Both the position numbers and the translations under genes were made by a program. The notes below the pieces were generated by a model. That model made no database searches. It worked only from the letters and a program-made list of their open reading frames with translations, and was not told where the DNA came from. Positions 8,301-64,000 of a stretch of DNA of 64,000 nucleotides are shown one piece after another. The stretch's first letter is position 1. Every line of letters starts with the position of its first letter. The DNA is taken from positions 29,890,661-29,954,660 of the forward strand of contig NC_080410.1 of NCBI RefSeq assembly GCF_030265065.1. The letters run 5' to 3'. Source of the DNA: Corythoichthys intestinalis (taxonomy: Eukaryota).

Positions 8301-9570
8301 TAGGGCTGTCAAAATTATCGCGTAAACGGGCGTTAATTTTTTAAATTAATCACGTTAAAATATTTGACGCAATTAACTAGAGCTGGGAATCTTTGGGCAC
8401 CTAACGATTCGATTACGATTCAGAGGCTCCGATTCGATTATAAAACGATTATTGATGCACCCGCCCTCCTTTTTTATTTATTTATTTATTTTTTAATTTT
8501 TAATTTCTTTTTTTTAAATGTTTTGTACATTAGTTCCAAAATTGTTCAAAAATACTCTCAGGCTAAACCAAACTACTATTTTAGTATCAAGTTAACATAT
8601 AGCAGTAAACAAATATACAAAAATAACTGCAAAAAAAAAAACTCCAGTCCCCATTCTGTATCAGCAGCTTTAAACTACATTCAATTAATTTAATGTTGTG
8701 AATCAACCGTTGTTAAAATTGCTCCCGTTATTCCATAGAAAGTTTTAAAACTATTTTAAAGATAGATTCAAGTCAATATTTTACCGATTTAGGAGTATTT
8801 TTGATAAAAAGTTAATTAGGTTTGCTTGGAAGGTTCGCTACAACAGCCTTGCAGGGAAGTGTACAGCTTTAAGATGGCGGCCGTTTACTAACGCCCGCAT
8901 CTAGCTTTTTGTAGGTGTGCTGCTAACGCTACCGAAGCTATATTGCAACTAGTCCTATATAAATGATATCTACCGTAACATTATGTGGATGTACTTTGTA
9001 GCAGCTTTTTGGCAGCAGTCACGTATGTTGTTGCGTTTTTTTTATCTCGTGGCATGAGTTGAGCATTGGCATTACCCGAGGGGCCGGGTAATGAGAAGCA
9101 TGATGTTTAGCTACTCTCGCTCCGTTCCTCATTGACCGCGCGGCGCGCTGAGTGTGTTGTACTTCCGCTTTACTTGGCATATTTCAATAATCGGAATTTG
9201 GATGTTTGTGAATCGTTCTCGAATCTTCCACGGCTGAATCGCGAATAATCTAAGAATCGGAAATTTTGCACACCTCTAATAACTTGTAACTAACATTTAT
9301 CTTTTATGAACTACAAGTCTTACTATCCGTGGATCACTTAAACAGAAAGAATGTTAATAATGCCATTTGTGGATTTATTGTTATAACAAATACAGCACTT
9401 ATGTACAGTATGTTGTATGTATATATCCGTCTTGTGTCTTATCTTTCCATTCCAACAATAATTTACAGAAAAATATGGCAATTTTAGAGATGGTTTGAAT
9501 TGCGATTAATTACGATTAATTTTTAAGCTTAATTAACTCGATTAAAAATTTTAATCGTTTGACAGCCCTA
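8301..9570. mobile_element. Non-autonomous hAT-like element (TIR TAGGGCTGTCAAA...TTTGACAGCCCTA) flanked by 8-bp TSD GGAAAAAC/GAAAAAAC
   Basis: Terminal inverted repeats and a near-perfect 8-bp TSD. A paralogous empty site is visible at ~19500. Confidence 0.7.
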
Positions 9571-39696: not shown

Positions 39697-39829
39697 CTGT
39701 GACACCACGGCAGGCAAAGGCCACACCTTAAGTTAGTTAATTGTGGAAATTCTCGACCCACGCGGTATTTTGATTTCGCGGGCCAAGCGAAGGCTGGCAA
39801 AAAGCGGCACCAGTGGCGGCGTGACTGAC

Positions 39830-40911
39830 CATCGGCTCCAGGTGCGACACACGCGCATGCACAGGCACAACTCTCGCTGGCTGAGGAAAGTGAAGACGCG
39901 CAGCCACACATCGCGCGGCATGACGTGAGCGCGGCCTGAGTCCAGCGGAAGGCAGCTGGGTTCGGGGCAGGCAGGTGGCGGCCTCACCAGGTGGCGCTCC
40001 ATCTGGACGGGACGGGGTGGCGACGGCACGGCTGGAGGGCTACGCTTCATTACGTGCGAGCGCCCTGCCGCGCCGAGGCGAGACGACTGCGAGCACGGTG
40101 ACGCCGCGGTCACCGATACTAGCGGGCCGCCGCCTCGCCCGCCGTTGGGGGTGGGGATAGAGGTGGAGCAGTTCCTTGGACGACTTTTGTTGCCTTTGGC
40201 CACGCCCGCTCCCACCCCGCCGTGTCTGTGATTGGTCGGCGGACCACTGGCGTTCTCCTTTTCACCCCGCGTGCGGCCGTTGCGAGCCTCCTGCCCGTTG
40301 TTGCGCTGCGAGGACGGAGCCATCTGATTGGATGAGAGAGGCGACGGCGGCGGGAGGGAGGAGATTTTCCCCAGTCTGTCCGAAGGGGGCGGCTCGTCCT
40401 GGTCGGCGTCCGATGCGCCAGCTTTCCTCCCACGCTGCACCAGGGATCCTCCAGCGTCACTGTCCCCTCGCCGACGGGCCTTATCCCGTTCCTCCTCCCG
40501 CTCCTCGTCCTCACCTTCCGACTCTTCACTTGCGCTGAAGCCCAACTCCGCCAGGCGGCGGTCCCGCTCGCTGCGGAACCTCTCCGGGCGGCTTCCATTG
40601 CCGTGGGCGATGGGAGGGGGTGGCGGCGGCGAAGAGGGCGAGGACGCCCCTCCCCTGCGAAGGGAGTCATCCGAGTCGGACTCAGAGTCTGACTCCGAGC
40701 TGGATGACGAGGACGAAGACGAGTCAGGCCTGCGTTCCAGGAGACACATCCTCTTGAAGCGTTCCAGTTTTTCCCGATGACGTGAACGCTGGTCGGCGCC
40801 AGAAGCTCCGCCACCATCGGCTGGCGGCGTTGACGAGGACGCGGAGCCCTGAGGAGCCCCTCCCGCCGAGGGAATGGGGCCATTGGACTCGGCTCCTTCT
40901 TGTTTGGGCTT
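39830..40911 (-). CDS. kdm2b: kdm2b-like large exon: Ser/acidic/Pro-rich linker plus F-box (…[30 protein letters not shown])
   Basis: Acceptor ttttttag. 1082-nt open frame. F-box matches KDM2[32 protein letters not shown]. Donor TG|gtcagtcac. Confidence 0.85.
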
Positions 40912-42917: not shown

Positions 42918-43239
42918 CTGTCAATAATTATTCTTTATATTTATTCTATATACATGATATCTAAGGTCGCGCACTCAATACAGAATGTTACATTGAGAAC
43001 ACAAACGCCCCAAATGGAAAAGGAGATAAATGTATCGTTTTACTAGGCATGTGCCGGTATGCAATTCTGACGGTATGATAACCTTAACCAAAAATATCAC
43101 GGTTTCACGGTATTGCAATTACAGCTCTAAAATGTTTGAGATTTCTGGGTTCCAAAAAAAAAAAAAAAAAAAACTTTTTCCATTGAATAGGATTTTTATT
43201 TTTCAAAACTGTATAACATAATTAGCAAATTGGAATATA

Positions 43240-44869
43240 CAGTGCCTTGCAAAAGTATTCGGCCCCCTTGAACCTTGCAACCTTTCGCCACATTTCAGGC
43301 TTCAAACATAAAGATATCAAATTTTAATTTTTTGTCAAGAATCAACAACAAGTGGGACACAATCGTGAAGTGGAACAACATTTATTGGATAATTTAAACT
43401 TTTTTAACAAATAAAAAACTGAAAAGTGGGGCGTGCAATATTATTCGGCCCCCTTGCGTTAATACTTTGTAGCGCCACCTTTTGCTCCAATTACAGCTGC
43501 AAGTCGCTTAGGGTATGTTTCTATCAGTTTTGCACATCGAGAGACTGACATTCTGGCCCATTCTTCCTTGCAAAACAGCTCGAGCTCAGTGAGGTTGGAT
43601 GGAGAGTGTTTGTGAACAGCAGTCTTCAGCTCTTTCCACAGATTCTCGATTGGATTCAGGTCTGGACTTTGACTTGGCCATTCTAACACCTGGATACGTT
43701 TATTTTTCAACCATTCCATTGTAGATTTGGCTTTATGTTTTGGATCATTGTCCTGTTGGAAGATAAATCTCCGTCCCAGTCTCAGGTCTTGTGCAGATAC
43801 CAACAGGTTTTCTTCCAGAATGTTCCTGTATTTGGCTGCATCCATCTTCCCGTCAATTTTAACCATCTTCCCTGTCCCTGCTGAAGAAAAGCAGGCCCAA
43901 ACCATGATGCTGCCACCACCATGTTTGACAGTGGGGATGGTGTGTTCAGGGTGATGAGCTGTGTTGCTTTTACGCCAAACATATCGTTTTGCATTGTGGC
44001 CAAAAAGTTCAATTTTGGTTTCATCTGACCAGAGCACCTTCTTCCACATGTTTGGTGTGTCTCCCAGGTGGCTTGTGGCAAACTTTAAACGAGACTTTTT
44101 ATGGATATCTTTGAGAAATGGCTTTCTTCTTGCCACTCTTCCATAAAGGCCAGATTTGTGCAGTGTATGACTGATTGTTGTCCTATGGACAGACTCTCCC
44201 ACCTCAGCTGTAGATCTCTGCAGTTCATCCAGAGTGATCATGGGCCTCTTGGCTGCATCTCTGATCAGTTTTCTCCTTGTTTGAGAAGAAAGTTTGGAAG
44301 GACGGCCGGGTCTTGGTAGATTTGCAGTGGTCTGATGCTCCTTCCATTTCAATATGATGGCTTGCACAGTTCTCCTTGAGATGTTTAAAGCTTGGGAAAA
44401 CTTTTTCTATCCAAATCCGGCTTTAAACTTCTCCACAACAGTATCTCGGACCTGCCTGGTGTGTTCCTTGGTTTTCATAATGCTCTCTGCACTTTAAACA
44501 GAACCCTGAGACTATCACAGAGCAGGTGCATTTATACGGAGACTTGATTACACACAGATGAATTCTTTTTATCATCATCGGTCATTTAGGACAACATTGG
44601 ATCATTCAGAGATCCTCACTGAACTTCTGGAGTGAGTTTGCTGCACTGAAAGTAAAGGGGCCGAATAATATTGCACGCCCCACTTTTCAGTTTTTTATTT
44701 GTTAAAAAAGTTTAAATTATCCAATAAATGTTGTTCCACTTCACGATTGTGTCCCACTTGTTGTTGATTCTTGACAAAAAAATTAAATTTCATATCTTTA
44801 TGTTTGAAGCCTGAAATGTGGCGAAAGGTTGCAAGATTCAAGGGGGCCGAATACTTTTGCAAGGCACTG
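43240..44869 (-). mobile_element. Tc1-like DNA transposon (1630 bp, TA TSD, ~200-bp TIRs CAGTGCCTTGCAAAAGTATTCGGCCCCC...)
   Basis: Inverted ends at 43240-43450 and 44650-44869. Internal 302-aa transposase ORF at 43459-44367 carries D,D,E motifs (DNDPKH, SPDLNPIEN). Confidence 0.9.
43459..44367 (-). pseudogene. Tc1 transposase ORF, nearly intact. The N-terminal HTH segment (MKTKEHTRQVRDTVVEKFKAGFG*KK...) lies upstream but is separated by a single in-frame TAG.
   Basis: The six-frame ORF begins MQAIILKW.... Reverse-strand translation upstream recovers the conserved Tc1 N-terminus with one stop. Confidence 0.65.
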
Positions 44870-46510
44870 TACGCATAAAGGTAAATAAATAAAAAATAAT
44901 AAAAATAAATGAAATATTCTAAATAAAATAAAATTGCCATGATAATTAGCCCCTTTATTAAATAAATAAAAAAATAACAAAAAATAAATGAAATATTCTA
45001 AATAGAACTAAATTGGCATGCTAATTAGCCCCTTTATATACCTCGTTAACAAGCTTACGTTTCAGTATGTTTTACCAATGCTAGACACACTACAGATGCT
45101 GGAGTAAATGCTCGTAGCTAGTAGGAAACGTTCATGACAGCGTTACTAATTTTGTATAAATGCGAAATCATATTGGGAGATATTGCCTTCTCTGTTAGCC
45201 ACCCCGTGCAAACATGTTTTACATGTTGGTTGGCCCACCTAAGCCGCGGCCTTAAAGAGAATTATAATACTAAGGGGCTGTGTGATATCAATGGAACAGT
45301 TATGTGGCAAGATAATAAAGTTAAAAAAAAAATAAATCACACTCATGACCAATTATCGAAAATAAATAGAAAATTACGAACATTTACGAATGTAGCCCGG
45401 AAACAGCCAAATGGGGCTATGACGTCACAGCCAGGAAGCAAAAGGTCGAGGCAGATGCCATTGTTGTTTATCGACGAGAGAGTTGCGTTCGTTTTTTATC
45501 AAAAAAATCGCTAAAATGGTTCCAACCTGTCGTGCTATGTGGTGTACAAATAGCAATTTGTCGCAATGTAGAACCCATGAGTTCCCGAATGCGAGAAAAA
45601 GAGCTGGACTAAGCAGACAAAAGGTAAAGTTCGTCCGTGCTAAGAGGGCCAATTTTGCAGACCCAGCCTCCGGCACGGTTTTGTGTGGTGTAAATTTTAC
45701 ACCTGAAAGCTTTTCGAACTATGGACAAATTAAATCAGGTTTTGCTAAGAAATTGCTGCTGAAAGCAGATGCGGTGCCCACCATACACGCGCAGCCACCT
45801 AAATGTTCTGAGATATCAAGAAAGAGGACGATGACTGGCACTGATGATACCACCCCAGGCAAAGCAAATGAGTTGAGCAGCCAAGCTCGAAATGGCCAGA
45901 GTGAGTACTCTTTTATAATAAAAAACATATCATGCATTGGCTATAGGACTGGACACATGTATAAATTATCGCTCGTAAAATATATACAACAAATCCTTTA
46001 ATCCCATTCATATTTGTGTCTGTTGGCAGAGCGAAAACCTATGATAGCACAATAAATGATAATTATTCTATATATTACTTTATTTTGCGGTCACGGTGTA
46101 TCAGCTTCACAAAAAGAAATGCAAAACAAACCATTCGGTGTTTCCCACACGATCTGTTGCCGGTGTTTCATCAGTGTGATTGCTCCCCTCAATGATCCTT
46201 TCATTAGGCTGCATTGGCTTTCGTTTGGGCTCAAATTGATAACCCAAAACACCAAAGAAAGGTTCATAACTTTCCTTGTCACTATTAGAAGAACGTTCAT
46301 TACGTCGGATTCGTCGCTGCAAATAGAAACAAAATTGTCCGCCATCATCGCTGCCATTCAGTACTTTGTCAGGACCCAAGCACTGAGCGGGTGTTTCCTA
46401 GTTGTGACGTCACGCACACAATATGCTAGATTTCGGGGATCTCGGGCACCGGTCGTTTTAGCTTGACAATCGATCCAAATTTCTACCATTTTCTTGGTGT
46501 GTGTAATTAC

Positions 46511-48305
46511 TAGCAGTGCAACGGTTTGCGGTTCAAAACCGAACCGTACGGTTCGCCCTGTACGGTTCAATACGCCTTTATGAACCGCGCCTTTTTGGTT
46601 TTACAATTACAGTAATCTATTCTGAACGCTTGTGAAATGAATTGGTCAAACTCTGTGTGCCTGTGTGTGACGTGAAGCGCAGCTGTGGAGAAATTCCCGC
46701 CCCGCGAGTAAATGTCCAATCGCTGTCAAGCACCTGTGTAATAGGAGCCGAGTAACGACCTCTCTCGCTTACGAGCGAGGTGAAAGTGAAACAAGAAAGA
46801 AAACAAAAAAAGTTATGGCGAGCGGAGGAGTCGACAGACCGATTTCTGAGGAGGCACCGGCTTCTTTCAAATCTGCGGTGTGGCAACATTTCAGTTTCCC
46901 CGTGGACTACAATGCAGACGGAGAGAAAACATTGAAAGAAAAAAAACAATTTGCAAGCATTGCTTAGCGCTTGTTCCCTATGCTAACGGCAACACTTCTA
47001 ACATGACTTGGGCACCTCAGCCGGCATCACCCACAGACATCGCTTTCTCAGAGCAGGACAACCCCGAAGATGACACCAGTGAAAACACACGGGTCTATAG
47101 AAGAGGCGTTCGAAAAGCCTTACAATATCAGGTCAGAAAAACACAAGAAAATAACCCACGCAGTGGGAATGTGCATTGCAAAAGACATGCAACCATATTC
47201 CGTGGTTGAAGATGCGGGCTTAGTTAATTTGATTGTAACGCTTGACCCGCGTTATATTGTTCCCTCGCGGATATATTTCGCCAACAACATAATCCCCGAC
47301 ATTTATGAAATGTCACGCAAAGCCATCGAAGGTGATTTCGCGAAAGCACATAGTTTCGCCCTGACCGCTGATAGTTGGACGTCCCGTGCTAGAGAGTGCT
47401 ACTACCTAACTGTGACGATCCACTATAATTCATACCTGTCAAGTTGTAAGGTCTCGGCGTTATTTGTACAAGTGAGCACTGATTTTTAAATGTGTACGCC
47501 GCAGGTTACGTTCAAAATCTGCACGTTTTTCGTGCATTGGCGTTTTTGTTGGGTTTTTTTTCATCCGTTTGGATTTGGTCACGCGTTTGGTTTGTAGCAA
47601 ACGCGATGCTAGGCGGCTCCAATATTTCCTGACTGTGGCCGACATCATACAATCTACGCCTAGATATCTCATGCATATAGAACTACATGCGAAATGACAC
47701 ACGGTAGCGTTAGTAAACAGCCGCCATTTTAGAGCAGTAAACTTCTCAGAAAGGCTCTGTTGTAGTGAACCTTCCGAGCGAACCTAAGCAACTTTTTATC
47801 TAAAATACTCCTAAATCGACAAAATCTTGACTTGAGTCTATCTTTAAAGGATGAAACAGTTTTGAAATTTTCACATTCGAAAGTAGACAGAAGGGAACTA
47901 AGGCAAAAACGGGAGCAATTTTATCAACTTTAACCGTTGATTCACAACATTAAATGACCTCCAAACATAGCAAAGGTTACTATGTTTTTGGGTTTGTTTG
48001 TTTTTTTTTAATGAAAAAAAAAAGAAAGGTATCACCAGTTACTTTGCCAAGTAACTTTTTTACTACTGTGTATTTCAGTAGTCAGTCACTACACTTGCCA
48101 AAGAGCTAAGAGGCATTTTAACAGTCGAAAATGTTTACATTTTAAGTGTTTATTTCATTTTTTTTAAAAGCAAAATAAAGGCAGTTTAAAAAAAAAAAAA
48201 GAAGAAAAGCAAAACGCAAAACGCAAACCGAACCCGAACCGAAACCGTGATCCCAAAACCGAGGTTCAAACCGAACCGTGGGCTAACTGAACCGTTGCAC
48301 CCCTA
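46511..48305. mobile_element. hAT element (TIR TAGCAGTGCAACGG...CCGTTGCACCCCTA) with 8-bp TSD GTAATTAC, nested in THAP-element copy 1
   Basis: TSD at 46503-46510 and 48306-48313. Copy 2 retains the unoccupied site gtgtGTAATTACacg at 52521-52532. Confidence 0.8.
46800..47490 (+). pseudogene. Decayed BED-zinc-finger / hAT transposase N-terminal region (SAVWQHF...CKHC...; ...DAGLVNLIVTLDPRYIVPSR...TADSWTSRA)
   Basis: BED-finger and hAT motifs split across two frames (ORFs 46880-47209 and 47070-47489) with a stop between them. Confidence 0.6.
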
Positions 48306-50300
48306 GTAATTACACAAAGTGGCATGATATGAATCCAAAAGGCATGCGTTTATGGATAAATGATGGAATATTAGCATTTCCCCAGGTGTTGTCATACCCT
48401 TTAACTTTCCTGTACCCAAAGTATTCCCATACCAGTGACTTCGTTTTCTTCGATGGGGGTAAAAGTTCAGGGGTTTCATGTCCTCCAGCCAACGTGCAGC
48501 ACAGCTGTCTCACTGACACTGAGCAACAACTTGAGGGGGGAGCCCTACATTTTTGGGACATAAAATACAGTCATACGTAGGGACGGTATGACTGAAAGTT
48601 TTAGCGGTTTTGAAACCTTGACGTTTTCATACCACGGTAGACCTTGAAACAAGTAACCGACACATGCCTACGTTTTACACCCTGAATCGACACAAAAACA
48701 GACCACAGGAGTGGAATCAGCCTAAAAGTAACACTTTCAAAAATTACTAAAACATGACTAAGGATAAAAAGTATTTAACTAAATCTCAACGGCCTGCCAA
48801 AAACAACACCAAATGTAACAGGACTTATTTTCTTTATTTAACATGAAAAATATACGCATCGTGAGCAGCTGCAGAGGCGGATGTCCTTTTTTTAACCAAC
48901 TCTAAAAAAATCCTCAACAAAAAGAGTTACTGAATATGACAGTGTTTGAAATTATATTTACTGCTGTTTTGTTTTGCTCTCCTATGGTATGCCTCCTTAT
49001 GAAGTCAAAAAAGTAATTAAATTTGAATTTATTGGAACTTCTTATTAGCAGTCGGTCGGCAGAGGAAATGAGAGTCGATGCGCTTTTCTATTTTTGAGTT
49101 GATCTCCTCTCTAAGAAATGCTGAATAAAATACAATGATGCCACTCATTCTTCATTTACTAGTCAGCAGCCACCCCAACACACACACTTAAAGCACCTTC
49201 CCCCCCGCTCTTGCAGATATTCCAAAACGACTACTTCACCGTTGACTTAACTCGAGTCAAAATTCCAAAACAGCTATTAGAGAGCACTCCATGATCAAAA
49301 CAGCTCCAATATAATGTGATTAGACATGTGCCGACTACCGGTTTCAAAGTATACCGTGGTATTAAAAAACGTCGCGGTTTCAAAAGAGCAAAAATTTTCC
49401 ATCATACTGCCCCTACAGGATTAGCTATTTTTTTATGTCCCAAAAATGCAGGGAGAAATCCCTCGCTTGCAGCTGCAAAGCTCAAACCTCCCCCACCTGT
49501 TGTTGCTCAGTGTCAATAAATCAGCTGTGCTACACGATGGCTGGAGGAGGTGAAACTCCTGAACTTTTTCTCCCCATCGAAGAAATCGTTTGGTTTGGTA
49601 AATACTTCGGCTACAGAAAAATTACAGACGGCCGCGGCTTGGAGGAGGAGGGCAAACCGACATGTACAACATGTTTGTGGAGGTTGGCTGCTGAGGAAGC
49701 AATCCATCCAATATTTACACAAAATTTACACAAAATGAAAGGCAAGTAAACATTATCATGAACGTTTCCCACCACCTACAAGAGTTAACTCCAGTGTGTT
49801 TAGTGTGTCTAGCGGTGGCAAAATGCGTTTCTCTCTGGCAACTGTGTTGAGAAAGAGTGTGTGTATCATGAAACATGATACGAGTCATACACATGTGCTT
49901 TTTATGGACAATAACTCAATTATTTTTGTTCTGATGTTAATAATGTGAGCCGTGGCTGTGGGTTTACACTCACTTAAAGCACTACATTTATTGTAATTTT
50001 ATTTAGAATATTTCAGTTATTTTTTACATTTATTTTAACATTATACTTATATTCCAAATTGCTAATATCGTTTGAAAAATAAAAATCCTGTTCAATGGAA
50101 ATAAGTTTTTTTAACCCAGATATCTCAAAGTAACACATTTTAGAGCTACCATAAGAGCTTGCGATACCGTGATACTGTGAAAGTTTTGCTTAAGGTTCAC
50201 ATACCGTCAGAATCTCACACCGGCACATGCCTAAATGTAATGATTATGGATTGAATGGATTTCTACACCGCTTTTATCTCTAAAATTCAGCAGGACTCAC

Positions 50301-50387
50301 CTTGCTGGTTTTTCCTTCCTTGTGACACTTGGGACACTCCCAGCAGTTGGGAATCTCGTCGTTGATGATGCCCTCCGCTTTGCCCAT
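50301..50387 (-). CDS. kdm2b: kdm2b-like exon ([29 protein letters not shown])
   Basis: Acceptor tctcgtag, donor AAG|gtgagtcc. Matches KDM2B ...[18 protein letters not shown]. Confidence 0.85.
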
Positions 50388-50468
50388 CTACGAGACAGCA
50401 CAAAAAAAATAGTACATGAAAACTATATGTACTTGACAGCTAGCCACCATGAAGGTAGAGGTCCCCAC

Positions 50469-50612
50469 CTTGAGGCAGCGCGGGTGTATGATTTCGTTGC
50501 AGATGGTGCACTCCATCAGGCTCAGGCTGAACTTGTCCTCCTCGCCTTCCACAGTGTCCTCCTTTCCCGCCTCGCCGCACGCCAGGCACACCGCCGTGTG
50601 CGGCAGCACCGG
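50469..50612 (-). CDS. kdm2b: kdm2b-like PHD-finger exon ([48 protein letters not shown])
   Basis: Acceptor tgtgcag, donor AAG|gtgggg. Matches the KDM2B PHD region. Confidence 0.9.
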
Positions 50613-51078
50613 CTGCACACAGATGTCACAAGTCACAACACGACCCATGCCTAATTAGCTACAGCATACCACCATTTACAGTGTTCCACTGTTTTGATAC
50701 CCCCACGTCCATGTTTTTAAAACAAAATTTAATGGAAAAAAATAACACATTTGGACAGTCCTTTTCCTCTTTGGCCCAGAAGACACGAAAAAAAAATTCA
50801 AACATGGACTCATCAGACCACATTGCGCCCGCACTACATCAGCACAAGACATGGCATCCTCTCCATTGGCCTGAGATTATTTTTGTATGTTTTCATATCA
50901 GTTCTCAGCCTTAATTCATCAATTAATCGATCAGTTGCCCAAGATCCATGCACAGTGCATGTCTGTTTCTGGTTAACTGGTAATGCCAGTTGCCATGGAA
51001 ACACAGCATCGTTGCCTGCTGGCCTACAGCTTGCCTTGGATGCTATTTGAAGAATCCGTGTGTGGCTTTTGGTCTTAC

Positions 51079-51255
51079 CGCTGTGCACTGCCTGAGCAGG
51101 CAGGACTGCTTCATGCGCCCGGGCCCTCCGAACTTCTTCATATCCTTGCAGAAGTGACACTCGCCGCACTCGCTACGGGTGCACGCCTGGCAGCGGCGGC
51201 ACCGCGTCCTCCTGCGCCTCGCCCCCCCGCCCAGCGCCTTACTGCCCGACATCCC
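51079..51255 (-). CDS. kdm2b: kdm2b-like CxxC zinc-finger exon ([59 protein letters not shown]); in-frame ATG at 51250-51252
   Basis: Near-identity with the KDM2B CxxC domain. Acceptor cgttag, donor GCG|gtaagacc. Confidence 0.85.
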
Positions 51256-51297
51256 CTAACGAGTCAGCTGCAAAAACAACAAGAACAACAACATTAA

Positions 51298-52619
51298 AGG
51301 GTATTATAATACTAAGGGGCTGTGAGAGATCAATAGAACAGTTATGTGGCAAGATAACAAATATTAACAAAGTTAACAAAAAAATAAATAACGTTCATCA
51401 GCAATTATCAAAAATAGATTGAAAATTACGAACATTTCCAAAAGTATTCCGGAAACAGCCGAATGGGGGGGGGGGGGGGGGGGGGGACGTCACAACAAGG
51501 AAACAAAAGGTCGAGGCAGGTGCCATCGTTGTTTATCGACGAGAGAGTTGCGTTCGTGTTTTATCAAAAAATTGCTAAAATGCTTCAAACTTGTCATGCT
51601 AAGTGGCGTACAAATAGCCATTTGTCGCAATGTAGTACCCAAGAGTTCCCGAACGTGAGAAAAAGAGCTGGACTACGCAGACAATGAGTAAAGTTCGTCC
51701 ATGCTAAGAGGGCTAATTTTCCAGACCCAGCCAACAGCACGGTTTTGTGTGGTACGCATTTTATACCTGACAGCTATTCGAACTATGGACAAATGAAATC
51801 AGGTTTTGCTAAGAAATTGCTGCTGAAATCCCGAGATATCCCTGATATCCTGAGATATCAAGAAAGAGGACGATGACTGGCTCTGATGAGACCACCCCAG
51901 GCAAAGCAAAGGAGGGAAATGACCAGAGTGAGTACTTTTATAATAAAAAACATATCACGCATTGGATATAGGACTGGATACATGTATAAATTATCGCTCG
52001 TAAAATATATACAACAAATCCTCTAATCCCATTCATAAATGTGTCTGTTGGCAGAGCGAAAACCTATGATAGCACGATAAATGATAATTATTCTATACAT
52101 TACTTTATTTTGCGGTCACGGTGTATCAGCTTCACAAAAAGAAATGCAAAACAAACCTTTCGGTGTTTCCCACACGACCTCTTGCCGGTGTTTCATCAGT
52201 ATAATTGCTCCCCTCAGTGATCGTTTCATTAGGCTGCATTGGCTTTCGTTTGGGCTCAAATTGATAACTCAAAACACAAAAGAAAGGTTCATAACTCTCC
52301 TTGTCACCATTAGAAGAACGTTCGTTACGCCAGATTCGTCGCTGCAACTAGAAACAAAATTGTCCACCATCATCGCCGCCATTCAGTACTAAGCACTGAG
52401 CTGATTGTTTGCTTGCTGTGACATCACGCACACAATATGCTAGATTTCCGGGATCTCGGGCGCCGGTCGTTTTAGCTTGACAATCGATCCAAATTTCTAT
52501 CATTTTCTTGGTGTTGCGATGTGTGTAATTACACGAAGTGGCATGATATGAATCCAAAAGGCATGCGTTGATGGATAAATGATGGAATATTAGCATTTCC
52601 CCAGGTGTTGTAATACCCT
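51298..52619 (+). mobile_element. TTAA-flanked THAP-carrying element, copy 2 (1322 bp, no nested insertion), 45 bp upstream of the kdm2b CxxC exon
   Basis: Same termini and internal sequence as copy 1. TTAA at 51294-51297 and 52620-52623. THAP-like ORF 51463-51687 is degenerate. A 23-nt G-run lies at 51464-51487. Confidence 0.7.
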
Positions 52620-53249
52620 TTAAGGTGACATATTTCACCTTTCCAGTCTTAGGTTTAACTCTTTACACAGCATTGACGATGATTGACATCAAATCATGTG
52701 ACTTCATCTTATGCTTTCAATTTAAATTTGCCACTAACAGACGTCAAATCCATTTGAACTGGGAAGGGTGGCCGCGAATGCCATCAAATCGATGGATCAA
52801 CATCTTCATGATATGCCATTTTGTGAAAAAGAATGCTTTTCATTCAAATGTTGAAAATATTTCAGCGACAAAAAAACGTCAAAAACATCGATAGCGTATT
52901 TCATTGTTTAGGCAAATATAACTCTTTGTATTGAATGTGTTATAAAACTGTTTTTTCCCCCATCAATTAATTCATTGATTGCACATTGACAGTGGTAGAT
53001 GTTAGATCCATTTGGATTGAATGGACTGCCATCTCCTCCCAATCCAAATAATTGGACGTCTATCGTCGTCAGTGTCACTTAATCATTTGCTACCACTGCC
53101 TGACTCGTATTTCAAAATAATTTGACGTCAAAGGCTGTGAAATGGTTCAAATAGCCTGTCGACACCACTGTTCCATGATGGGGGTGTCCTAGAAATATTA
53201 GCATTGAACTCTTCTGCTTGATGCTTTCGACTTGCGGTCATCGGGTCAC

Positions 53250-55250: not shown

Positions 55251-56027
55251 ATGGGCAAGACTGCTGACTTGAGTGCTGTCCAGAAGGTCATCATTGACAC
55301 CCTCAAGCAAGAGGCTAAGACACAGAAAGAAATTTCTGAGCGAATGGTCTGTTCCCAGAGTGCTGTATCAAGGCACCTCAACGGGAAGTCTGTGGGAAGG
55401 AAAAAGTGTGGCAGGAAACGCTGCAGAACCAGAAGAGGTGACCTCACCCTGAGAAAGATTGTGGAGAAGTGCCGATCCCAGACCTTGGGGGACCTGCAGA
55501 AACAGTGGACTGAGTCTGGAGTAGAAACATCCAGAGCCGCCGTGCACAGGTGTGTGCTGGAGCCACTTTTGAACCTGAAACAGCGGCAGAAGCGCCTGAC
55601 CTGGGCTACAGAGAAGCAGCACTGGACTGTTGCTCAGTCGTCCAAAATACTTTTTTCAGATGAAAGCAAATTTTGCGTGTCATTCGGAAATCAAGGTGCC
55701 AGAATTTGGAAGAAGACTGGTGAGAAGGAAATGCCGAAATGCCTGAAGTCCAGTGTCAAGTACTCAAATTCAGTGATGGTCTGGGGTGCCATATCAGCTG
55801 CTGGTGTTGGTCTACTGTGTTTTTTCAAGGGCAGGGTCAATGCAGCTAGCTATCAGATTTTGGAACACTTCATGCTTCCATCTGCTGAAAAGCTTTATGG
55901 AGATGAAGATTTCATTTTTCAGCACGGCCTGGCTCACAGTGTCAAAACCACTGGTAAATGGTTTACTGACCATGGCATTACTGTGCTCAAGTGTCCCGCC
56001 AACTCTCCTGACCTGAACCCCATAGAG
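55251..56027 (+). pseudogene. Tc1-like transposase remnant (MGKTADLSAVQKVIIDTLKQ...ANSPDLNPIEH), disrupted by MITE insertion at 56028
   Basis: Transposase homology. The reading frame runs into the inserted MITE. It resumes as NLGTKY* after the TSD. Confidence 0.6.
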
Positions 56028-56255
56028 CACAGGTGTCAAACCGATTCCAGAAAGGGCCGAGTGGGTGCTGGATTTTGTTCCAACCGATACAACGCAGAGA
56101 GTTTAATGAACTTCCTGCTGAAACAAGCAGCACCTGACAAAGTTTAACTGATTACACATGTAAAAGATCTAATTGGTGAAAAGGTGTCCTCTTCATTGGT
56201 TGGAAAGCAAACCTGCACCCACTTGGCCCTTTCTGGAATCGGTTTGACACCTGTG
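56028..56255. mobile_element. Palindromic MITE (CACAGGTGTCAAACCGATTCCAGAAAGGGCC...), 8-bp TSD CCATAGAG, inserted in the transposase ORF
   Basis: TSD at 56020-56027 and 56256-56263. A divergent family member is at ~6035-6262. Confidence 0.7.
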
Positions 56256-60800: not shown

Positions 60801-62912
60801 TTGAGAGCTCAATAAATTGAAGAAAAGAACGCCTTATGTTTGGAGTATTTGTTTTTGTGTTCGCTGGCTGGCTAGCCGATAGCATCACTTTCACACACAG
60901 AAACAAACGGTAGGGGGTGAGCGCTGCCGCGCCATGCCACTTCTGGCTGCATTTTTGAGACATGAAAAATGGCGAATACCGTACTACGGTCTGACGGAAA
61001 ATTTTAGTGGTTTTGAAACCGCGACGTTTTCACACCACGGTAAACCGTGAAACCGGTAACCGGCACATGCCTAGTCCTGAGTGTGTTGTTAAGTCCCGTG
61101 TGCGTCTATTAGAGGTGAGTACACGAACCCTCTTGTACTGTTTAGCCTTTATTGTTGTTGTTTTTGAGATGTTAACAGTTAGTGCTAAGCTAAATAGGGA
61201 ATTCGCTAACGTGTATTTCCATGTCTATTTGTGCGTTATTAGTGTACAAAAGCATACTAAATAATACATATGCAGAACATGTAAAACCAGGATCAAGTAC
61301 AGCGGTAACACTACAAACATGCGAAATAATACAGAAATCTGTGAAAACAAAGTATATTGGTTAAAAGAAGTCTTATTTCTAAAGGCACTTTGGTTTTTTT
61401 CCAGAAAATGTGGAATTCATTCCACCACTGTAAATTTTATTGTATTGTTGGGAGAAATAAGTACTCCCTTTGAAACAGCTGCGCCTTCTTGTGAAAAAGA
61501 GCAGCTTAAGTTCAGCTTTTTGTTGTATAGGCATGTTTCCATTGTTCCTGCTGGATCATTAGTATGAAGTAGCCACAAAGTAAGAGAAAAGAGGTAGGGG
61601 CGTAAAGAAATCCTGATCATTGTTAATACCGTGAAGATAATTCAATAATCATTCAAGTTCAATAATCGAATCGTAGTACCCTGAATCGTAATTTAGTCCA
61701 ATCGTGGGGTGCCTTAGATGGCACACCCCTAATATGCACGCATGAAAATCACCGATGACCCATGCAATCAATAGTGTTGGCTATATTTTCAGGATGAAGT
61801 TATTAAAACTTACCATTGCATGTCAATAACTGTAGTATGAACAGCAACATTTGTAATCCAGCTGCTCTGTAGGCAACATGCTGCAGAGTGGATAATTTTT
61901 CCACCGGTGTGTTTATATCGTGGCCAGCAGCAAGTATCCAAAGTTTGTATTGTTCCTCGTTCTTCATAGGGAATTTGTGGAAACTCTCATTTGCCCATTT
62001 CTTCTGTCTGTTTCCACAGCCTCTAAATGCATGTTTCACTATGTTGCCGTTCTTCATTCAAGACTCCTTAGACTGATGCTGCATTCGAGGAAGGTGGGGA
62101 GTCCGAGTTTCCAACCTCCGACCAGAAAAAAATAACATTGGAACGCCACTCGAACTGGGAGGCACTAGTCGCCAAGTCAGGAAAAAAAAACAAAAACAAG
62201 TTGCTTCAATCAGACGTCACTCAATAAAATGCGGTGCCCGTCGAAAAGCAGACCGTCAATAGAAAAACTAAAGAAGGCAGTATACAATGTGGTCTATTTA
62301 GAGTTTTCCTCCAGTATTTGATCACTTATGAGAAGGCAGGTTTGCTGGAGGTCAACATGTCTTTTGATGTCCAAAATAAAAAACGATTGGAACACTTTGA
62401 GGTCACAACTGGTACCATCCGAGTGGGATAAGTCCAACTACCCATCTTCCTCGAATGCAGCATGAGCACAAGTTGCCGTAGCACTCCTCTCTATGGGGGT
62501 CTCATTACGCATCTAAAAAATAGTCTCGCAGAAATAAATGAATTACGGCAATTTGGTGTGACATTGTTTTTGGCTGTATGTGTATTTTGAACAAACGATG
62601 TGCATTTTGAATTTTTTTGACTATATTCGATCTGTTAATATCATTTTATTGGGATGCTAGGAAGGGACCATTCACTCACGCCGGGTACCCCCCCCGACTT
62701 TGCGACTAGGACCTCCAAATTCGAGTGGCATTCCAATGATATTTTTTCTAGTTGGAGGTTGGAAAACTCCCGACTTCCCACCTTCCTTAAATGCAGCATT
62801 CGAGTCCAAATGAAATAACGTCCTGTGTTGAAAACCCCCGAAACAACCGATGATGGCATGCGAGTTTCAGACAACGAAATCTAAAGGGTTTATTTGGGAT
62901 TGTATGTTTCAG

Positions 62913-63144: not shown

Positions 63145-63589
63145 GGGTTGTTCCGATCATGTTTTTTTTTTGCATCGATCGTTTTAGTTTGAGTATCTGC
63201 CGATCCCGATATTTCCCGATCCGATTGCTTTTTTTTTTTTTTGCTCCCGATTCAATTCCAATCATTCCCGATAATTTTTCCCGATCATATACATTTTGGC
63301 AATGCATTAAGAAAAAAATGAATAAAACTCGGACGAATATATACATTCAGCATACAGTACATAAGTACTGTATTTGTTTATTATGACAATAAATCCTCAA
63401 GATGGCATTTACATTATTAACATTCTTTCTGTGAGAGGGATCCACAGATCGAAAGATTTGTGATTTTGTATATTGTGACTAAATATTGTAGTGTATTTGT
63501 TGAGCTTTCGGTAAATGATACTGCAGCCATTCAACCCAAATGCATGATGGGAAGTGGAACCATGACTGTGCGTTGTGCTACCAATTGAT
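63145..63589. repeat. Same repeat family, copy B, truncated by a Tc1 insertion at 63590
   Basis: Aligns with 4354-4830. Confidence 0.6.
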
Positions 63590-64000
63590 ACAGTGCCTTG
63601 CAAAAGTATTCGGCCCCCTTGAACCTTGCAACCTTTCGCCACATTTCAGGCTTCAAACATAAAGATATAAAATTTTAATTTTTTGTCAAGAATCAACAAC
63701 AAGTGGGACACAATCGTGAAGTGGAACAAAATTTATTGGATAATTTAAACTTTTTAAAATAAAAAACTGAAAAGTGAGGCGTGCAATCTTATTCGGCCCC
63801 CTTGCGTTAATACTTTGTAGCGCCACCTTTTGCTCCAATTACAGCTGCAAGTCGCTTGGGGTATGTTTCTATCAGTTTTGCACATCGAGAGACTGACATT
63901 CTTGCCCATTCTTCCTTGCAAAACAGCTCGAGCTCAGTGAGGCTGGATGGAGAGTGTTTGTGAACAGCAGTCTTCAGCTCTTTCCACAGATTCTCGATTG
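63590..64000 (+). mobile_element. 5' part of a second copy of the same Tc1-like family (continues past window end)
   Basis: Identical left-TIR sequence preceded by a TA. Confidence 0.85.

Follow-up and report, generated by a model that had tools for sequence, protein, structure and literature searches.

Does a nested transposon leave enough evidence at a single locus to show what was inserted, where its ends lie, and what the target looked like beforehand? This question is raised by a 64,000-nucleotide stretch of the Corythoichthys intestinalis genome (assembly GCF_030265065.1, contig NC_080410.1, positions 29,890,661 to 29,954,660 of the forward strand), referred to here as the window, in which a hAT transposon interrupts one of two copies of a second, TTAA-flanked element. 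A sequence-only reading had described a 1795-bp hAT element between direct repeats in the first copy of a THAP element, and a single repeat unit at the homologous position of the second. On our analysis, with a probability of roughly 93%, a non-autonomous hAT element inserted into a palindromic octamer of one copy of a Kolobok-like transposon, and the second copy represents the pre-insertion state. The features of the insertion site, with its terminal inverted repeats (TIRs) and target-site duplication (TSD), are as follows.

45252-48404, plus strand: host copy 1, with TTAA at 45252-45255 and 48401-48404 and its body at 45256-48400, interrupted by the hAT element 95 bp from the 3' end
51294-52623, plus strand: host copy 2, uninterrupted, with TTAA at 51294-51297 and 52620-52623 and its body at 51298-52619
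46503-46510, no strand: left TSD copy GTAATTAC, the same as 48306-48313 and single at the empty site 52525-52532
46511-46526, plus strand: left TIR TAGCAGTGCAACGGTT, matching the right TIR at 14 of 16 positions and lying exactly at the breakpoint
48290-48305, minus strand: right TIR TAGGGGTGCAACGGTT as read on the minus strand (plus-strand end AACCGTTGCACCCCTA), exactly at the breakpoint
48306-48313, no strand: right TSD copy GTAATTAC, from direct sequence reading and self-BLAST
52525-52532, no strand: paralogous empty site in host copy 2, where GTAATTAC stands once, from direct reading, self-BLAST, and three-way and global alignments

The junctions can be read directly, and they delimit an insert at 46511-48305 that is exactly 1795 bp long, as the earlier reading had claimed. 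On the left, ...TTCTTGGTGTGT-GTAATTAC-TAGCAGTGCAACGGTT... carries GGTGTGT immediately before the octamer; on the right, ...AACCGTTGCACCCCTA-GTAATTAC-ACAAAGTGG... carries ACAAAG immediately after it. The empty site in copy 2 reads ...GATGTGT-GTAATTAC-ACGAAGTGG..., with ACGAAG after the octamer. The 8-bp direct repeat is perfect on both sides of the insert and the octamer stands once in copy 2, so the locus displays the 8-bp TSD of the hAT superfamily in both its filled and its empty form, and the filled-versus-empty logic of the sequence-only reading holds. That reading was right that the octamer is single in copy 2, but its coordinates for it (52521-52532) include four extra bases.

The sequence on either side of the insert is shared between the host copies. 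In a self-BLAST of the window, 45252-46500 matches 51294-52514 at 86% over 1273 columns, gaps included, and 48306-48404 matches 52525-52623 at 97% over 99 bp. Without the insert and one TSD copy, the host copies can be matched over their full length in a global alignment, and a three-way alignment of the filled and empty sites agrees. The pairwise alignment that had been proposed as a check, with a loss of collinearity as the outcome that would tell against an insertion, thus finds the flanks collinear across the insertion point. Chance is not an explanation for this arrangement, because its components are rare in the window: a degenerate version of the TIR 16-mer matches twice in 64 kb against 0.10 matches expected, inverted and exactly at both breakpoints of collinearity, and three of the five occurrences of GTAATTAC are the two TSD copies and the empty site.

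The empty site is needed to define the ends of the element. GTAATTAC is a perfect palindrome, contained in a 14-bp palindrome of the host element, TGTGTAATTACACA. Because the target octamer is palindromic, a repeat finder extends the inverted repeat of the filled site to 27 nt, across the TSD and into the flanks, and the filled site does not by itself show where the TIR ends and the TSD begins. It takes the empty site to assign the octamer to the target, and this settles the boundary. The insertion created the 8-bp duplication. One further difference lies nearby: an 8-bp indel, TGTTGCGA, is present in copy 2 only (52514-52521, opposite 46500/46501), with 6 bp between it and the target octamer downstream. 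It is clear of the junction and, by position and by sequence, is no hAT footprint.

The two host copies are about 1.33 kb long without the insert, lie 6 kb apart in the same orientation, and are 91.0% identical over 1291 aligned positions (Kimura two-parameter distance 0.096, 9 indel events). Their similarity begins and ends exactly at TTAA, and the outer flanks are unrelated on both sides. Copy 2 has the termini AGGGTATTA... and ...TAATACCCT, with a TIR that is perfect over 9 bp and matches at about 17 of 22 positions when extended; the termini of copy 1, AGAGAATTA... and ...TCATACCCT, are slightly mutated. Copy 2 also contains a poly-G run of about 22 nt (51462-51484) where copy 1 has GGGG (45413), a homopolymer expansion. 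Both copies retain traces of a coding region, seen in copy 1 as an open reading frame (ORF):

45516-45788, plus strand: degenerate THAP coding region of host copy 1, with ATG at 45516 and the Pfam match at 45528-45788

The Pfam THAP match of this ORF has an E value of 8.6e-6 (26.9 bits against a cut-off of 23.9), and the ORF aligns to THAP1 (PDB 2KO0, E=0.003) across the C2C(H) residues and the AVPTI box. The decay of the two copies is complementary: copy 1 has exchanged the zinc-binding His for Asn (CGVNF) and keeps the AVPTIH box, while copy 2 keeps the His (CGTHF) and has lost the AVPTI box to a deletion. Pfam finds no further domain in the remaining host ORFs, and a protein-database search with the THAP ORF gave no match and identified no autonomous Kolobok partner.

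Two other TTAA- or TSD-forming superfamilies were considered for the host. piggyBac elements target TTAA and have the termini 5'-CCY...RGG-3'; this assignment was rejected, as the host ends are AGGG.../...CCCT rather than CCC.../...GGG and THAP is not a piggyBac domain. P elements have an 8-bp TSD and TIRs of roughly 31 bp, and were rejected as well, since the flanks of the host share TTAA only, without an 8-bp duplication. Kolobok elements and their miniature inverted-repeat transposable element (MITE) derivatives are recognised by TTAA targets, termini beginning with AG (RR / AG) and a THAP domain (PMC6004289). The host shows TTAA at both ends of both copies, AG-initial TIRs and a THAP domain; it has no Kolobok DDE or H2CH coding sequence, as expected for a 1.33-kb deletion derivative. 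As no homologue of its THAP ORF was found either, we name it Kolobok-like and non-autonomous rather than proven Kolobok. The term THAP element used in the earlier reading is here refined.

The insert itself has the architecture of a hAT element. Its parts, from the subterminal regions inwards, are:

46511-46630, plus strand: 5' subterminal region with five GAACCG/CGGTTC motifs (46529, 46541, 46549, 46563, 46582), including the palindrome GAACCGTACGGTTC
48198-48305, plus strand: 3' subterminal region and right terminus with GAACCG at 48236, 48273 and 48289, sharing homology with the 3' end of the relative in L001
46815-47432, plus strand: hAT (ZBED1-like) transposase remnant of about 205 N-terminal codons, a disabled ORF, from Pfam zf-BED, PDB 2CT5 and tblastn
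46936-47006, plus strand: segment between two compensating 1-nt frameshifts, from nucleotide alignment with the intact ORF on the related locus L003 and from the ORF list
47433-48197, no strand: non-coding filler of about 765 bp in place of the missing two thirds of the transposase gene, without homology, Pfam domain or Rfam family
47706-47957, no strand: fragment of an unrelated dispersed repeat of about 250 bp within the filler, with a second copy at 8685-8895 (minus strand) that is about 86% identical over 142 bp plus a second segment

The TIRs are 16 bp long and match at 14 positions, within the 10-25 bp reported for hAT elements (PMC3942097). At positions 4-5 the left TIR has CA (TAGCAG), whereas the right TIR and the two termini of the L001 relative read TAGGGG. 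This indicates that the ancestral terminus was probably TAGGGG and that the left TIR in the window carries two substitutions. hAT termini follow the consensus YARNG; the right end (TAGGG) fits it, and the left end (TAGCA) carries a mutation at position 5. Of the eight GAACCG/CGGTTC motifs in the insert, five lie within 120 bp of its left end and three within 120 bp of its right end; the 1555-bp interior has none. At the background density of the motif in the window (about 0.2 per kb), about 0.05 occurrences would be expected in 240 bp. Repeated subterminal motifs of this kind are characteristic of hAT elements, in which subterminal sequence is required (PMC12637253), and those found here are putative transposase-binding sites.

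The coding capacity of the insert is limited to a fragment. Three ORF pieces join into the N-terminal part of one hAT transposase, with a BED zinc finger at about 46872-47033 (Pfam zf-BED, 9.7e-8). The best PDB match of this fragment is the BED domain of human ZBED1 (2CT5, 5.9e-9), and the PDB search returned this domain only, with no Hermes-type match. The first catalytic Asp is kept, in 'TADSWTS'. Compared with the intact L003 ORF, one nucleotide is missing from an A-run at about 46936/46937, and an extra one at about 47006 restores the frame; between these two sites the BED finger is out of frame in its core and its Cys pair, and a TAG stop is exposed at 46965-46967. Homology to the transposase stops at 47426-47432, after '...FALTADSWTSR...LTVTIHY', in tblastn comparisons with 3 short and 10 longer relatives, and the ten longer relatives found no C-terminal remnant anywhere in the window. 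What survives is about the first third of the protein, from the BED finger to the first catalytic Asp; the insert has no second catalytic Asp, no Glu, no insertion domain and no hAT dimerisation domain. The earlier description of a frameshifted BED-finger/hAT transposase was accordingly correct but incomplete, as the gene is also truncated. An autonomous hAT element has a complete transposase, in which the entire DDE/RNase-H-like core and the hAT dimerisation domain share an open frame; with an incomplete, frameshifted one, this element is classed as non-autonomous.

The region that replaces the rest of the gene shows no transposase homology (tblastn), no Pfam domain in any ORF and no Rfam family. 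Likewise, Pfam detects nothing in any ORF of the hAT interior that would be a sign of a captured gene, and an Rfam scan of 45000-53000 gave no match. The dispersed repeat within the filler starts GCGTTAGTAAAC...GCCGCCAT and ends ...GGTTGATTCACAACATTAAAT; its other copy is 39 kb away, and no TSD or TIR was seen. It may be filler captured by the hAT element or a nested fragment. The insert as a whole is thus a non-autonomous internal-deletion derivative with filler DNA.

Relatives of the transposase are numerous, and place the element among the ZBED1-like hATs of fish. A profile search recovered 312 hAT/ZBED1-like relatives at E<=1e-10, nearly all of the named ones from teleosts and annotated as 'E3 SUMO-protein ligase ZBED1-like' or 'zinc finger BED domain-containing protein 1-like'. 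The closest proteins are P0033 of Aulostomus maculatus (68% identity over 141 amino acids), which bears the domain Dimer_Tnp_hAT (6.3e-20), and P0001 from a marine metagenome contig (63% over 203 amino acids). The remnant is therefore homologous to proteins with a C-terminal dimerisation domain, as found in P0033 and, as PF05699, in the L001 relative. At the nucleotide level, the closest sequence found is L003, at 72% identity, which carries an intact ORF.

One independent relative is an insertion present in two assemblies of another eukaryotic genome (L001 and L002), whose protein is 48% identical in amino acids to the copy in the window. The L001 element is 2532 bp long, has the inverted termini TAGGGGTGGCACGGT(A/T) and encodes PF05699 within the same TIR-bounded unit. 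Its subterminal regions are likewise rich in GAACCG, its 3' end is 75% identical to that of the window element over 109 bp, and it is flanked by a different perfect 8-bp TSD, ACACTCAC. The same termini with a different TSD show that this lineage moves with exactly these ends and makes 8-bp TSDs. In both assemblies, a LINE-type (long interspersed nuclear element) retrotransposon ORF with Exo_endo_phos and RVT_1 domains adjoins the related hAT (L001 9747-12628 and L002 9756-12638, both minus strand).

Closer copies were sought in two ways. Metagenome contigs scanned with the TIR 16-mer gave at least 120 loci with one match each, none of them alike beyond the 16-mer; these were rejected as family copies and taken as chance matches. 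Exact-sequence look-ups of two window ORFs for sister copies found neither on record.

The proposed history draws in part on established hAT biology. The inserted element is probably derived by internal deletion from a teleost ZBED1-like element of Ac type; the deletion and its filler would have arisen earlier, possibly by abortive gap repair in a progenitor. Because its transposase gene has only about 205 codons, with two frameshifts, and lacks the dimerisation domain as well as most of the catalytic core, the copy is not self-mobile. A transposase supplied in trans would have bound to the TAGGGGTGCAACGG termini and to the subterminal GAACCG repeats, and cut-and-paste insertion would have followed into GTAATTAC near the 3' end of host copy 1. 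Target cuts staggered by 8 bp, and then gap repair, would account for the direct GTAATTAC repeats. Host copy 2 was never hit, and so keeps the pre-insertion sequence.

The site pair also gives an order of events. The host family made at least two copies, and the hAT element is in one of them and absent without a scar from the other; it entered the copy 1 lineage after this had split from the copy 2 lineage. The claim that the spread of the THAP element preceded the hAT is accordingly valid for this insertion event, but does not extend to the arrival of the hAT family: a single hAT copy gives neither the arrival time of its family nor its age relative to the host family. At this level of divergence, a perfect TSD is uninformative.

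Other histories would produce a similar pair of sites. If the hAT element had been in the common ancestor of both host copies and was later lost from copy 2 by excision, a perfectly precise event would in principle restore the single octamer and leave copy 2 as it is, and the otherwise unexplained 8-bp indel 6 bp upstream could be seen as a trace of it. Excision of hAT elements such as Ac, hobo and Hermes proceeds through hairpins on the flanking DNA, and footprints are usual, with both TSD copies altered at their centre. The octamer of copy 2 is instead single and intact, with matching bases on both sides, while the indel lies off the junction and is unlike a TSD copy. This history also needs the transposition of a composite 3.1-kb element, and we consider it highly improbable. 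A deletion between short direct repeats would leave exactly one repeat, as is seen at 52525-52532, so the 1795-bp segment could alternatively be ancestral to the host and have been lost from copy 2 by recombination between the 8-bp repeats. Against this, the segment is bounded at the breakpoints by inverted termini of its own, has hAT-type subterminal motifs and contains what is left of a hAT transposase gene; in another genome, a relative that shares these termini is surrounded by unrelated sequence and has another 8-bp TSD. It is therefore a unit of mobility in its own right rather than host sequence, and loss by deletion is hardly credible.

The relationship between the host copies can be questioned in the same way. 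They lie 6 kb apart in the same orientation, as would be expected if they were a local segmental duplicate of which one was afterwards hit by the hAT element. However, their similarity ends exactly at TTAA and the inverted AGGGTATTA termini, with unrelated sequence outside, the mark of two independent insertions of a TIR transposon; a segmental duplication is extremely unlikely, and would leave the hAT conclusion unchanged. The preferred reading, insertion of a non-autonomous hAT into one of two Kolobok-like copies, has points against it too. No other copy of this exact hAT family was retrieved by the TIR scan or the exact ORF look-up. There are only two host copies, and the hAT element may have been in the ancestor of copy 1 before the composite moved to its present site. 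The host lacks Kolobok DDE and H2CH coding sequence and its THAP ORF matched nothing in the database, such that the Kolobok-like label would stand on the termini, TTAA and THAP; its TTAA duplication appears probable from the flanks.

The elements resemble known systems, with some differences. Ac-type non-autonomous hATs, of which maize Ds is the classic case, share the 8-bp TSD, short TIRs and repeated subterminal motifs, and their deletion derivatives likewise keep the termini and have an internally deleted transposase partly replaced by unrelated filler, which we infer was gained here by abortive gap repair. These hAT features are summarised in PMC3942097. In contrast to Ac, the window element belongs to a teleost-type animal lineage, has another TIR sequence and carries GAACCG in place of the Ac motif AAACGG. 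Arensburger and colleagues reportedly described in 2011 the target consensus nTnnnnAn for the Ac group and nnnTAnnn for Buster; GTAATTAC, as a single site, fits the former and not the latter, and the L001 TSD ACACTCAC fits only at A7. The teleost ZBED1-like hAT genes (such as P0033, and P0010/P0012 of Scomber japonicus) are 47-68% identical in amino acids over the surviving 140-205 residues, and their proteins have the same BED finger and ZBED1_RNase-like N-terminal region in precomputed Pfam annotation. These proteins are about 500-575 amino acids long, several with Dimer_Tnp_hAT, whereas the window copy is frameshifted and ends at about residue 205.

Likewise, the host resembles Kolobok and T2-MITE elements in its TTAA ends and AG-initial terminus AGGGTATTA (compare Xenopus AGGGGAACTATC, AGGRR; PMC6004289), and in a THAP domain with C2CH residues and an AVPTI(H/F) box; it differs from Kolobok in being a 1.33-kb element without the DDE/H2CH coding sequence. 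Paralogous empty sites have been used to analyze Spy, PHIS and Helentron elements (PMC4122938, PMC4482050, PMC4067079). The principle is the same here, as comparison of a nested transposon with an uninterrupted paralogue separates TIR from target and defines the TSD; this case is unlike those only in circumstance, as both states occur within 6 kb.

The locus lies in a teleost-like window that contains minus-strand exons of a KDM2A/KDM2B/FBXL19-like gene. These include a CXXC zinc-finger exon at 51043-51252 (minus strand; Pfam 7.4e-16, PDB FBXL19 2e-25, KDM2B 2e-24) and an F-box exon within 39733-40749 (minus strand). Host copy 1 and its hAT element occupy the intronic interval between the F-box and CXXC exons, downstream of CXXC in the orientation of the gene; host copy 2 is in the intron upstream of the CXXC exon, starting about 40 bp from the CXXC ORF.

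Several other repeats surround the host copies. A BED-finger-like N-terminal motif, PPSKKTKSLVWEYFGYRKV ('KSLVWEYFGY'), is found at 48412-48489 (minus strand), just outside the right TTAA of copy 1. A third layer of nesting at this point found no support: when the host was removed in silico and the junction translated, there was no Pfam BED match, and tblastn with two hAT proteins gave E values of about 0.3. The motif could be what remains of a very old hAT, or a coincidence. Inverted repeats at 48445-48539 and 49490-49585, 85% identical and about 1.1 kb apart, also adjoin copy 1; they point to a further TIR or MITE-like element, and related pieces at 60941-61073 indicate other copies of it near 61 kb. 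A Tc1-like transposon (43238-44871, about 1.63 kb) has 218-bp TIRs that are 97.7% identical (43238-43455 against 44871-44654) and a nearly intact transposase ORF at 43459-44367 (minus strand; HTH_Tnp_Tc3_2 2e-24, DDE_3 2.5e-16), and it looks young. A partial copy of it, 97.6% identical, is present at the end of the window (63588-64000). A second, different Tc1/mariner-type transposase ORF of 298 amino acids lies at 55251-56147 (plus strand; Pfam DDE_3 1.8e-10).

A decayed DNA transposon nested in another, with a paralogous empty site, is textbook biology and ordinary transposon debris of a fish genome. Both superfamilies are well known, the elements are at most new members of them, and Repbase or Dfam may already list the families in question. 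Fish genomes routinely contain nested DNA transposons and paralogous empty sites. The locus has little import beyond annotation. The subterminal repeats of the hAT derivative are intact, and it also keeps a BED-finger fragment from the 5' part of its gene and a piece of another repeat. It is conceivable, although we think it very unlikely, that this 1.8-kb derivative belongs to a still-mobilisable non-autonomous family kept alive by autonomous ZBED1-like hATs elsewhere in the genome; if so, the insertion could be polymorphic among individuals, within an intron of a KDM2/FBXL19-like chromatin gene. In any case, the site pair provides a clean internal definition of the termini and TSD of one hAT family, which is useful because the palindromic target otherwise blurs the boundary between them. 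It also orders two insertion events and is a candidate presence/absence marker.

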